Assembly: GCF_054482595.1 (NCBI RefSeq)
Contig: NZ_CM137008.1
DNA length: 64,000 nt
Strand: one strand, 5' to 3'
Part shown: one piece after another, positions 6,001 to 9,000 of the stretch
How the letters are laid out: each line of letters opens with the position of its first letter
How positions within the stretch are numbered: the stretch's first letter is position 1
Made by a program: the position numbers

Positions 6001-9000
6001 TCATCAAATTAAACGAATTCTATTACACAACAAGGAGTGGGAGGATGAGTAATATCAGTTTGTATTGTTTGCCATATTCAGGTGGTTCTGCCGCTATGTA
6101 CTATAAATGGCGTAACGTGCTGTCGGACAATATTACTTTGAAGCCTTTAGAACCTGTGGGGAAGGGGAATGAACAATGATTTTTCCGCGAAAAAAATCCT
6201 GACGGGTGAGGATGTCCTGTGTGCGGCCGTTCACCGTATTGAGTGGTTGTTTGAGACATTTTCTTCTGTCTGTTTGTCTTTTTCCGGAGGAAAAGACTCT
6301 ACTGTGCTGCTCCATCTTACGGCCGATGTGGCTCGCAGGAAGAAACGTCGTTTCTCTGTATTATTCATTGACTGGGAAGCTCAGTACCAGTGCACAATTG
6401 CACACATTCTGAAGATGAGGGAGATGTATCGGGATGTGACGGAGACTTTTTACTGGGTGGCACTCCCCCTGACTACGGTAAACGGTGTCTCTCAGTTTCA
6501 GCCGGAATGGATATGCTGGGAACCAGGTGTGGAGTGGGTTCGTCAGCCACCAGATGACGCTATTACAGATATGTCGTACTTCCCATTTTATCGGTATGCC
6601 ATGACGTTTGAAGAATTTGTTCCGGCATTTTCTTCCTGGTTTGCCGGTAACCGGTGTGGAGTGGCAATACTGACTGGTGTTCGTGCTGATGAATCGCTCA
6701 ATCGCTTTGTGGGACTGGTGTCTCAGCGCAAACTGAGATATGCAGATGATAAACCCTGGACCACAGCGTCACCTGAAGGGTTTTATTACACCTTGTATCC
6801 GTTGTATGACTGGAAAGCTCGTGATATATGGATATATAACGCCAGAACCCGAGCTATCTACAATCCCCTGTATGACCTGATGTACCGTGCCGGCGTGCCG
6901 TTACGCAACATGCGGGTCTGTGAGCCTTTTGGCCCGGAACAGCGTAAGGGACTGTGGCTTTACCATGTTCTGGAGCCGGAAACCTGGGCCAGGATGTGTG
7001 AGCGGGTGTCGGGTGCTGCCAGCGGGGCGCTTTATGCCAATGAGAGCGGTGCCTATTTTGCCCTGCGTAAGCGTATCACGAAGCCACCTCATCATACCTG
7101 GCGTAGCTATGCGATGTTCCTGCTGGATGTGATGCCGGAAAGAACGGCAGAACATTACCGTAATAAAATTGCTGTCTACCTGCGCTGGTATCAGACGCGG
7201 GGCTTCCCGGATGACATCCCGGATGAACAGGAGAATGACCTGGGGAGCCGGGATATCCCGTCCTGGCGACGTATCTGTAAGACACTCATAAAGAATGATT
7301 TCTGGTGTCGGACCCTCTCCTTCAGTCCGAACAAACCCCGGCACTATGAACGTTATCTGCAGCGTATGAAAGAAAGGAGGAAGGAATGGGGGATTCTGTG
7401 ACACCTGAGGTGGAAGTATTGAGCAACATGATTCGACAGTACTTCAGTCAGGAACGATCTGAAGAAGAGACCATACGAGCCCTTAATCATCTGCGCAGGG
7501 TGTTGCATGAGGTCAGCCCTTTTGCACAGGAGCCTGTGGACTGTGTGTTGTGGGTGAAAGCGAATGAGGTGGTGGCCAACGATTACAATCCCAATGTCAT
7601 GTCTTCCAGTGAAAAAAAACTGCTTAAACATTCACTGGAGCAGGATGGATTCACGCAGCCTGTGGTGGTTTCGGAAGAGAAGGAGCATTATCTGGTAGTG
7701 GATGGTTTTCATCGTCAGTTGCTGGGCAGGAAAGCGGATACGAGAAAACGTCTGAAGGGCTGGCTGCCAGTGGCCTGTATTAATCCAGAGAGAAAGGGAT
7801 AGGCATCACGTATTGCCGCGACCATACGGCATAACCGTGCCAGGGGAAAACACCAGATAACGTCAATGTCTGACATTGTCAGGGACCTTTCGCGTCTGGG
7901 CTGGACAGATGAGCGTATTGGCACAGAGTTGGGCATGGATCAGGATGAAGTGCTGAGGCTCAAACAGATTAGCGGGCTGACAGAGCTGTTTCAGGAAGAG
8001 AATTTCAGCCCGGCATGGACGGTTCGTTGATATTGTAAAATATGATAATTGGAGTAGGGGACAATAGAAGGAGAATATTTATTCCACCTTCTTCCGCGTC
8101 GGGATAAATCAAAAGGTATTATCCATTGATTCAGTATCTGGGGGAGAGTAAATAATCTAAAAATAGTATTGCGTTGTGAACTGATATCACTTTTGAATTA
8201 CAAAGGTATAGGCTCAGTAGCCAGCTTTATAAGTCATTGTCGTAGCAATGAGTATAGAATCATGCTGGCGGGAAGAATAAATATTCATCTACAGATGGAA
8301 AACAACGACGAAAAACCTTCAACAAACACAATACGTTCGTTAGCCTGCCCGCAAAGCGGGCAGATCAGGACAAAGAATTCCATAACGATTGTTTTTGTCA
8401 TCAGAAATTCCATACAAAACCTATAGCTGCATTAAAACCTGCTGCAGGAATAGTTTCATGTGCTGTACGGTAGCGTTTGTCTGTCAGGTTATTGAGTGCC
8501 AGGTTAATCCGGTACTGATCCTCGTTACCGAATTCTGTATTTACTGCAAAGTTGAGAGTGGCCCAGCCCGGAATATTTGTTTCGGTACCGTTACTGTCAT
8601 CTTTTGCACTAGAGGCAGCACGAATAAAAACATCAGAGATTATGTTGGCCTGACCCATCACAAGAGTATGTTTCAGCCCTATACGTCCGTTTATCGCTGG
8701 TTCACCTGTATTAGTTGTTTTTAATGTTGAAGTTTCATATTGCCGACGAATTAAATTGCCACTGATATATGGCGAGAAAACCCAGCCATTATATTCTGCA
8801 CTTATTTCCAGTCCCCATGTTTTTGCCCGATCAATATTGTCATAATAATAGTAGCTACTACGGGAGGAGTTGGTGTTACCATTGCAAACTATACTGCCAT
8901 CACAGATCAGACTTGCAATATAATCTTTAGCTTCTGAGTAGTAAACTGCGCTGTCAATCAGCCACTGATTACCATTATATCGTGCACCTAATTCAAAGTT

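Follow-up and report, generated by a model that had tools for sequence, protein, structure and literature searches.

A pseudogenised ibrAB gene pair in Escherichia coli and its relatives in bacteria and phages

Positions 6169-8030 of a 64,000-nucleotide (nt) stretch of contig NZ_CM137008.1 (RefSeq assembly GCF_054482595.1), referred to here as the window, hold a copy of the gene pair ibrA-ibrB, a member of the already named and already annotated IbrA/IbrB family. The first gene is intact and the second is interrupted by an internal amber codon. The pair may be an inactive copy of a switch that came from phages and directs an ATP pyrophosphatase to DNA, a reading for which the chances of being right and of being wrong appear evenly balanced. 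A preliminary description of the window had put the two genes forward as a candidate for an uncharacterised system, a status that is difficult to maintain for a family that has a name, a reported genetic phenotype, the paralogues ybdNM in strain K-12 and routine annotation by PGAP. What that description observed is confirmed in part, and its interpretation is likewise partly supported.

The ibrAB pair and its amber codon

The elements of the pair, all on the plus strand, are the following.

6169-7401, plus strand: ibrA, an uninterrupted open reading frame (ORF) of 410 codons encoding a PP-loop protein of the ATP-pyrophosphatase type, with a PAPS_reduct N-domain and a DUF3440 C-domain
6283-6300, plus strand: SGGKDS, the PP-loop motif (IbrA residues 39-44), read from the sequence
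7375-7401, plus strand: coupling junction, with AGGAGG at 7375-7380, the ibrB ATG at 7386, the ibrA TGA at 7399-7401 and a 16-nt overlap
7386-8030, plus strand: ibrB pseudogene, with a ParB N-domain, a C-terminal helix-turn-helix (HTH) and an internal amber codon, from translation and the PGAP label "internal stop"
7701-7715, plus strand: DGFHR, the equivalent of ParB Box II (GERRxR); family consensus VDGfHR, aligned with GERRY of Spo0J
7800-7802, plus strand: premature TAG, Gln139 CAG to TAG through C to T at 7800, from translation and codon alignment
7809-7847, plus strand: RIAATIRHNRARG, the Box III equivalent, 3′ of the stop and untranslated; aligned with ENLQRE of Spo0J
7860-7988, plus strand: HTH, IbrB residues ~159-201, untranslated in the amber allele

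The N-terminal half of IbrA matches the Pfam PAPS_reduct model in two pieces (residues 34-89 and 165-240, at 8.6e-07 and 2e-06), in agreement with the earlier identification of a PP-loop protein of the phosphoadenosine phosphosulfate (PAPS) reductase type carrying SGGKDS, which lies within SFSGGKDST at residues 37-45. The match to the Pfam PP-loop family is weak (4e-4), and the C-terminal half matches DUF3440 over residues 242-345 and 359-390 (E 8.3e-25). PF01507 and PF11922 occur together in all 120 of 120 close homologues, within a family that comprises 1819 representatives at 50% clustering (E<=1e-3). The DUF3440 half is all-helical and basic, with a pI of 9.7 vs 6.3 for the N-terminal half. 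By homology, IbrA is assigned to the PAPS-reductase-like clade of PP-loop ATP pyrophosphatases, to which it adds a basic, helical DUF3440 domain.

Conservation was assessed in an alignment of 75 full-length homologues that share 27-53% identity. SGGKDS is conserved at 92-99%, and it belongs to a set of invariant or near-invariant positions that includes D68, E70 and the segment G170-x-R172-x-x-E175-S176-x-x-R179, together with P211, D214, W215, D219, W221, Y231, N232, Y235, D236, R249, R279 and D377. No cysteine conserved among the aligned homologues is also present in E. coli IbrA; the sole widely conserved cysteine of the family, at position 98 (88%), is alanine in the enterobacterial clade, including E. 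coli. The lack of a shared cysteine rules out the catalytic cysteine of CysH as well as the Fe-S ligands of adenosine phosphosulfate (APS) reductases, DndC and TtuA. A canonical PP-loop that is free of redox or sulfur-carrier cysteines points to adenylyl chemistry, and the combination of a perfect SGGKDS with no conserved cysteine makes cleavage of ATP between the alpha and beta phosphates, with adenylyl transfer or substrate activation, the most likely activity.

The structural neighbours of IbrA are consistent with this view. They are flavin mononucleotide (FMN) adenylyltransferase, CysD and TilS, which are adenylyl-transferring or nucleotide-binding PP-loop enzymes, plus the reductases; LarE, GMP synthase and TtuA are also listed in the comparison. 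The pair has no close solved structure by PDB sequence searches.

These features bear directly on the possibility that IbrA is an enzyme of sulfur metabolism, either a CysH-type PAPS/APS reductase or a phosphorothioation enzyme of the DndC/SspD type. The PAPS_reduct match and the PGAP name given to the identical protein sequence, "phosphoadenosine phosphosulfate reductase", would favour such an assignment. However, the NCBIfam models for CysH, APS reductase and CysD score only 19-36 bits against curated cut-offs of 154-745 (among the CysH-type models, NF002537 gives 32.3 bits with a cut-off of 154, TIGR02057 29.4 with 254 and TIGR00434 25.3 with 165), and E. coli IbrA has neither the catalytic C-terminal cysteine nor an Fe-S cysteine. 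The PADLOC model of DndC reaches only E 0.0013 (15.8 bits, no stretch passing), and SspD gives no match. The locus, which is bordered by colibactin (pks) remnants, a haem receptor and cobUST, contains no cys genes, and dnd and ssp genes are likewise absent nearby; none of the cys genes recurs in the wider survey of 178 loci described below, and cysteine desulfurase, DndD/DndE and SspB/SspC are absent both here and from the recurrent clusters of that survey. A sulfur-metabolism role is therefore very improbable, and CysH-, Dnd- and Ssp-type functions are effectively excluded; with scores this far below the cut-offs and no catalytic cysteine, the protein is not the bona fide CysH that the preliminary description had allowed for.

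Translational overlap of the two genes, as first described, is evident at the junction, where the ibrB start codon follows AGGAGG and precedes the end of the ibrA stop codon. Both genes are real, although the two-gene module outlined earlier does not hold in one respect: ibrB is not a single open frame. Its reading frame, carried through to 8030, runs ...VVDGFHRQ...INPERKG*ASRIAATIRHNRARG..., so that the two motifs by which a ParB-like protein had been recognised are both present and are separated by a stop codon. Since the in-frame TAG falls between both ParB motifs, 7386-8030 cannot be one open gene. The lesion is a nonsense codon rather than a frameshift; mechanical ORF calling splits the region into 7386-7802 (138 amino acids, aa) and 7866-8030, and in the PGAP annotation the identical sequence carries a pseudogene label, "IbrB-like domain-containing protein, internal stop". 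The preliminary description had merely hinted at inactivation, by speaking of an intact allele, and the amber codon gives that hint substance.

The amber mutation is young. The 2.1-kb region of the pair occurs at 100% identity in E. coli chromosomes that include those of W2-5 and SMS-3-5, and the encoded IbrB is 98% identical to the intact IbrB of UTI89. Codon 139 reads TAG in the window and in SMS-3-5; it reads CAG in UTI89 as well as in two strains with the clbQ-ibrA junction of the window upstream (99.8% identity). A 61-mer spanning the TAG has exact matches in 60 records only, and the corresponding megablast count of CAG alleles is unreliable owing to the 28-nt word requirement. The CAG codon in sister strains and the small number of exact TAG records together identify the lesion as a recent C-to-T transition in one sub-lineage.

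Intact IbrB is 214 aa long. The predicted truncated product, of 138 aa, lacks TIRHNRARGxH, which is the most conserved part of the family, and the entire HTH. Recognition by a ParB-domain profile, proposed at the outset as a check, fails for the single E. coli sequence (Pfam ParB_N, i-E 0.0043, sub-significant) and succeeds for the family, in which 35 of 59 members match ParB_N at E<=0.001 (best 1.3e-10) and whose profile finds ParB, Spo0J and Noc chains at ~1e-8. The alignment with Spo0J extends across Box II (GERRY/DGFHRY), Box III (ENLQRE/RHNRARG) and the HTH. VDGfHR is 95-100% conserved in the family; the Box III-like motif includes the invariant residues N150 and G154, and conservation reaches 90% or more at R151, A152 and R153. 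The HTH resembles the DNA-binding domain of KorB and sigma region 4. By sequence comparison, the N-domain of IbrB has a predicted ParB/Srx superfamily fold, and the joining of a nucleotide-binding domain of this fold to an HTH makes IbrB the predicted DNA-binding partner of the pair. With the Box III-like motif and the HTH both lost behind the amber codon at residue 139, the module is expected not to function in the analysed strain despite an intact ibrA.

The encoded proteins share 91% (IbrA) and 90% (IbrB) identity with the O157:H7 alleles, and IbrA is 91.8% identical to the product annotated IbrA in Escherichia phage PhiR5_2, which bears out the original assignment to an IbrA/IbrB-type module; the K-12 paralogues are more distant (YbdN 59%, YbdM 57%). 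Related DNA (about 80% identity or more) is present in 2146 of 5426 complete E. coli genomes, at 1-4 places each, with 79 places on plasmids. By identity, 207 records fall at 99% or above, 942 at 95-99% (the B2/UTI89 type) and 952 at 80-90% (including the O157 type). Islands, prophages and plasmids all carry the pair. As a known, annotated pair that is dead in the analysed strain, this locus is of low interest in itself, a pseudogenised copy of a RefSeq-annotated pair that matters little. The amber allele and its intact CAG sister alleles nonetheless constitute near-isogenic natural material. An intact sister allele is represented by the proteins WP_001083460.1 and WP_000502872.1.

Gene context and the proposed activity of the module

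The wider family is a different matter, and represents a real gap in knowledge: it is widespread, it has a paralogue in K-12, and no biochemical function was found for it. The earlier remark that the biochemical role of the pair is unresolved still stands, no resolving paper having been found. A search of the accessible literature returned no enzymology, ligand, DNA target or structure for the IbrAB family, and a survey of ParB-CTPase folds (PNAS 2025) mentions neither IbrB nor PAPS reductases. Proteins of the ParB fold bind CTP, ATP or GTP (PMC12704722), and phage PAPS-reductase-like proteins have been compared in passing with DndC (PMC8092301). As for function, the presence of ibrB enhances surface expression of Eib proteins (Sandt et al., 2002, as summarised in PMC7649339). 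In a transcriptome study of O157:H7, ibrB, an adjacent perC-like gene and a hypothetical gene are co-induced on contact with epithelial cells (PMC7649339), while ybdNM of K-12 is tightly repressed by CitR/YbdO (PMC9068703).

The context of the module was compared across 178 loci that encode an IbrA homologue, drawn from viral contigs and from genomes sampled at one per species; at 70% identity they fall into 86 groups. Neighbourhood conservation, another check suggested at the outset, is evident: a ParB-like gene is adjacent to ibrA in 141 of the 178 loci, directly downstream in 121 and directly upstream in 13. The spacing in the 121 downstream loci is most often an overlap, with -16, -4 and -11 nt the commonest values. 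Besides the ParB-like gene, only two neighbours recur. The first, a helicase of superfamily 2 (SF2) of ~420 aa, lies just upstream of ibrA in 29 of the 86 groups and matches phrog_62 and, weakly, Pfam Helicase_C (3.7e-4) and SNF2-related (9.4e-4). The second is a 136-aa protein encoded upstream in 13 groups, mostly those that lack ParB; Pfam and NCBIfam gave no match for it, and PHROG none that is informative. Genes for a desulfurase, an amidotransferase, a nuclease, a toxin or ParA are not among the recurrent neighbours.

The family spans many bacterial phyla and many phage groups, with an IbrA relative encoded in 224 phage records; the IbrA/IbrB proteins match phrog_2302 at 6e-83 and phrog_2159 at 1e-86. 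Of 18 loci in which a terminase large subunit was recognised in the flank, 15 have it on the same strand, 1-4 kb downstream, a pattern that is a lower bound rather than a frequency, as terminases were detected by iterated phmmer, which is insensitive (19 matches). DNA methyltransferase and acetyltransferase genes neighbour the module in phages. The module is phage-derived and self-contained, and in phages it is typically located just upstream of packaging or late genes. Representative arrangements are the following.

Cluster B mycobacteriophages and Arthrobacter phages: a PAPS-reductase-like gene between ParB-like genes, directly 5′ of terminase
Bacillus phage: an ibrA relative that overlaps a methyltransferase gene
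Flavobacterium phages: an ibrA relative between terminase and portal
S. thermophilus CHPC1230: an ibrA relative between lysin and the cro/antirepressor region
E. coli phage PhiR5_2: ibrA beside antirepressors

Some phage modules are larger than the E. coli pair. In Arthrobacter phage Kovu (locus L187, 3470-6116) the PAPS-reductase-like gene is bracketed by three separate ParB-like genes, and in Mycobacterium phage Marley1013 (L007, 1-2717) and Bacillus phage 031MP002 (L188, 3242-6532) by two; in all three, an acetyltransferase or methyltransferase is joined to the module, which stands directly before terminase. Several viral contigs have the order ibrB-then-ibrA (L026, 4739-5896; L113, 4163-5413; L119, 6818-7987), and their IbrB carries a C-terminal extension of ~150 aa that contains the motifs FHTWDKWEC, SCEHYLTN and NRIAWLGQA. 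This extension has no Pfam, NCBIfam or PHROG match, and the domain also occurs as a stand-alone 132-aa ORF near the module (L134, 10229-10627). Variation in IbrA itself includes a 631-aa homologue (P0268) with an intein after the conserved YDW...YN region and a 535-aa homologue (P0122) with a 135-aa protein fused at its N-terminus. Elsewhere this fusion partner is a separate gene just 5′ of ibrA (L108, 3521-3928; phrog_26647, unknown function), without a Pfam, NCBIfam or informative PHROG match.

In the mechanism favoured here, IbrB would bind DNA, possibly as a clamp gated by nucleoside triphosphate (NTP) in the manner of other ParB-fold proteins, and would either bring IbrA to DNA or a DNA-bound target or activate it. 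IbrA would then transfer an adenylyl group from ATP to a target on DNA or chromatin; the chemistry would consist of alpha-beta cleavage of ATP with adenylyl transfer or substrate activation, and would involve neither PAPS reduction nor sulfur insertion. The resulting ATP-dependent mark or remodelling could turn on otherwise silent phage or prophage genes; an effect of this kind on prophage eib genes has been reported for ibrAB from genetics. More specifically, intact IbrAB could represent a widespread class of ParB-guided, cysteine-free PP-loop enzymes that covalently mark DNA, an extension put forward tentatively, as a possibility with the larger part of the probability against it. Conceivably, the mark would arise by adenylylation-activated substitution of a base carbonyl. 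If covalent marking by IbrAB is real, it would be a new kind of DNA modification, or of epigenetic switch, whose chemistry differs from both phosphorothioation and 7-deazaguanine insertion, and the copy analysed here would be a dead relic of such a system.

Several observations weigh against the proposed switch. No enzymatic activity, ligand or DNA target is demonstrated for any family member in the accessible literature, and the regulatory phenotype rests on one study (Sandt et al., 2002), known through PMC7649339. About 20% of IbrA homologues have no detectable ParB partner. The DUF3440 half of IbrA returned no match in the structural-neighbour search, so DNA binding by IbrA is deduced from its charge alone. 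In IbrB, the Box II arginine pair of GERRxR is not conserved and DGFHR takes its place, which makes NTP binding and clamp behaviour uncertain. Close to the analysed copy, neither a parS-like palindrome nor a promoter is found: the only inverted repeats of parS type near the pair are short palindromes of 77-82%, judged to be chance, and a scan of 5700-8500 found no sigma-70 promoter on the plus strand upstream of ibrA. Finally, the site upstream of terminase and the SF2 helicase and methyltransferase neighbours would fit a protective DNA modification equally well.

In a second explanation, the module is primarily a phage system for base modification. A ParB-guided PP-loop enzyme would activate and substitute a base carbonyl in the fashion of TilS or GMP synthetase. 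Modification would shield the DNA from host restriction ahead of packaging, with gene activation in E. coli as a by-product. The location just upstream of packaging genes suits such a role, as do the SF2 helicase with its weak SNF2 match in 29 of 86 lineages and the methyltransferase genes that overlap or adjoin the ibrA relative. ParB-N domains are also fused to phage DNA methyltransferases (phrog_498 match), and ParB-like partners have precedents in DpdB with DpdA and DndB with DndC (PMC12839542; PMC10853773). On the other hand, no report was found of a modified base in phages that carry the pair, no cognate restriction partner accompanies chromosomal copies such as ybdNM, and the 178 loci contain no conserved amidotransferase or sulfur-donor partner. 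Base modification as the primary role is therefore considered unlikely.

The same genomic position can be read differently, as late-gene activators usually sit upstream of terminase in phages. IbrB alone might be the effector, acting as an NTP-gated, ParB-like anti-silencer or activator of transcription comparable to VirB or KorB. IbrA would do no more than adjust its activity, through synthesis or consumption of a nucleotide or its attachment to IbrB or RNA polymerase, and DNA would undergo no covalent change. The ParB N-domain and an HTH akin to those of KorB and sigma region 4 are in keeping with this arrangement, as are the reported activation of Eib and the co-induction of the O157 pair with its adjacent PerC-like regulator (both from PMC7649339, the former as summarised there), and the placement of ybdNM within a repressed regulatory locus in K-12 (PMC9068703). 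However, the PP-loop enzyme is fully catalytic in its motifs, larger than IbrB and strictly conserved across phyla, which suggests that the enzyme is central; solo IbrA homologues without ParB exist; and neighbours of the SF2 helicase and DNA methyltransferase types suggest that the module acts directly on DNA. An IbrB-only effector is also judged unlikely, if slightly less so than base modification.

A fourth view is that the pair forms an anti-phage defence or abortive-infection effector module on mobile elements. A 2026 preprint predicts PANGU-like defence clusters with operons of the types "NAP + PAPS reductase" and "NAP + PAPS reductase + Arc + ParBc", where NAP is a YejK-like nucleoid-associated protein (10.64898/2026.04.06.716658), and the presence of the pair on islands, prophages and plasmids would be compatible with a defensive role. 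There is also a weak similarity to BrxP of BREX type 4 (E 7.8e-06 over 70 residues); this match is limited to the PP-loop region, residues 29-98 of IbrA, and no PglZ or Brx genes are present, so that BrxP was rejected as an identity. The preprint clusters are untested predictions (10.64898/2026.04.06.716658), no nuclease, toxin or YejK-like NAP is recurrent in the 178 neighbourhoods, and the module is abundant in the genomes of virulent and temperate phages themselves. Neither protein meaningfully matches any PADLOC system model: IbrB matches no family, and no system is assigned to the pair. Defence is thus improbable, and a weaker alternative than either the IbrB regulator or base modification.

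Overall, the comparative results narrow the field of hypotheses. They leave no place for sulfur chemistry, and they indicate that the ParB partner is close to obligatory, that the SF2 helicase is a frequent third component, and that the phage module resides upstream of terminase.

The islet and the remainder of the window

The pair lies in accessory DNA, as first described, within a decaying segment between pks remnants and a frameshifted haem receptor. Gene remnants do surround it, and they belong to clbP, clbQ, galactonate dehydratase, an IS4-family element and a cobalamin gene. The adjacent element IS2 named in the preliminary description is not there; the nearest insertion sequence (IS) features are the IS4 fragment and an IS1 ORF. 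The features of the islet, four of them taken from the PGAP annotation of the identical W2-5 sequence, are listed here.

5205-5462: galactonate dehydratase fragment (PGAP, W2-5)
5574-5823: hypothetical gene fragment (PGAP, W2-5)
5828-5998: 3′ end of clbP with an internal stop, a pks remnant
6045-6167, plus strand: clbQ remnant (colibactin thioesterase), first 41 codons, from PGAP annotation of identical sequence, translation and UTI89 alignment
8401-10574, minus strand: TonB-dependent receptor of haem/haemoglobin type, frameshifted into ORFs 9606-10574 and 8401-9579, convergent with ibrB
~11727-11915: IS4-family transposase fragment (PGAP, W2-5)
11924-12067: cobalamin-biosynthesis gene fragment (PGAP, W2-5)
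26019-26522, minus strand: IS1-family transposase ORF (167 aa), between a glycosyltransferase-9 gene and yeeJ

The clbQ remnant stops one base short of the ibrA ATG and replaces the upstream DNA found in UTI89, and the clbQ-ibrA junction is common to the sister strains. The clbP and clbQ remnants together imply that the pks island was formerly at this locus and was then almost wholly deleted, in a non-B2 lineage. Homology to the intact UTI89 pair (98.6%) starts only at ~6222 of the window, within codon 18 of ibrA; the 5′ end and promoter region of the analysed allele therefore have a different history. The GC content is 0.48-0.52 over the pair vs 0.38-0.45 in the flanks. No terminator was found in the scan of 5700-8500, where promoter and terminator counts were at or below shuffled expectation. 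The frameshifted receptor, possibly Hma, has an intact orthologue in UTI89 and is a second sign of decay of the islet. Beyond the cobalamin remnant lie cobUST and then the asn-tRNA cluster.

Farther out, an upstream accessory metabolic cluster (546-4741) contains two genes of the anaerobic C4-dicarboxylate transporter family (546-1862, plus strand; 1978-3294, minus strand) and a second argininosuccinate-lyase-like gene (3359-4741, minus strand). In W2-5 this cluster is preceded by aspartate ammonia-lyase, ansB, dcuR and a GntR regulator. The IS1 ORF is missing from that site in W2-5 and is the sole clear IS transposase ORF found in the left half of the window. The neighbouring yeeJ/IatC-like gene for an inverse-autotransporter adhesin (26745-34802, minus strand; 2685 aa) is ~330 codons longer than the W2-5 allele, a length difference that suggests repeat-number variation. 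From ~36250 to 64000 the window is occupied by a lambdoid prophage, inserted by mtfA and tRNA-Ser and missing from W2-5; lambdoid prophages are the type of element whose eib genes IbrAB reportedly activates. Its main genes are listed below.

36250-37275: integrase
37537-39978: exonuclease
43208-44308: replication initiator
47630-48757: HNH endonuclease
49114-49809: Q-like antiterminator
53276-55033: terminase large subunit
55227-56468: portal
57111-58316: major head protein
60016-60771: major tail protein

Comparison with known systems

The closest known relatives are IbrA and IbrB of O157:H7, with which the analysed pair shares family, architecture, gene order and overlap. It differs in the amber codon at Gln139 of ibrB and in its site, which is the cobU/asn-tRNA region by the pks remnants, whereas the island that holds the O157 pair also encodes an AAA protein and carries a PerC-like gene. 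At the O157:H7 locus (L003, 3798-9847) ibrAB is intact, with a 171-aa hypothetical gene and a 722-aa AAA-domain gene on its 5′ side and a PerC-family regulator and a 214-aa hypothetical gene on its 3′ side. YbdN and YbdM of K-12 are a paralogous pair with the same domains, overlapping arrangement and conserved motifs; they occupy another locus, where ybdNM has a dedicated LysR repressor, CitR/YbdO (PMC9068703), and ybdM is intact.

Among DNA-modification systems, DndB and DndC offer a parallel, in that a DGxHR protein of the ParB superfamily is paired with a PAPS-reductase-like PP-loop ATPase, and Dnd acts on DNA. The analogy drawn in the preliminary description does not survive closer comparison: IbrA lacks the 4Fe-4S cysteine triad and the cysteine dyad of DndC (features from PMC10853773), and DndA, DndD, DndE and a restriction partner are absent around ibrAB. 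In the Dpd systems, similarly, an enzyme that modifies DNA bases is aided by a ParB-like ATPase, and helicases of the SNF2 type are also present (PMC12839542), but their catalytic partner, DpdA, is a homologue of tRNA-guanine transglycosylase and not a PP-loop enzyme. PADLOC returned no Dpd match, and the locus contains no Dpd genes.

IbrB shares with the ParB clamps Spo0J, Noc, KorB and VirB the fold of the N-domain, a Box I-like NPN motif, the Box III asparagine and a downstream HTH. In contrast to canonical ParB proteins it is short, has DGFHR in place of GERRxR and shows no evident C-terminal dimerisation domain. A canonical ParABS system was rejected as an identity for the pair, given the missing Box II arginine pair, the lack of ParA in the neighbourhoods and the lack of a strong palindrome near the copy. 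For IbrA, the comparison is with FMN adenylyltransferase (the PAPS domain of FAD synthase), CysD and TilS, from which it differs in sharing only 14-23% identity and in the addition of the DUF3440 domain.

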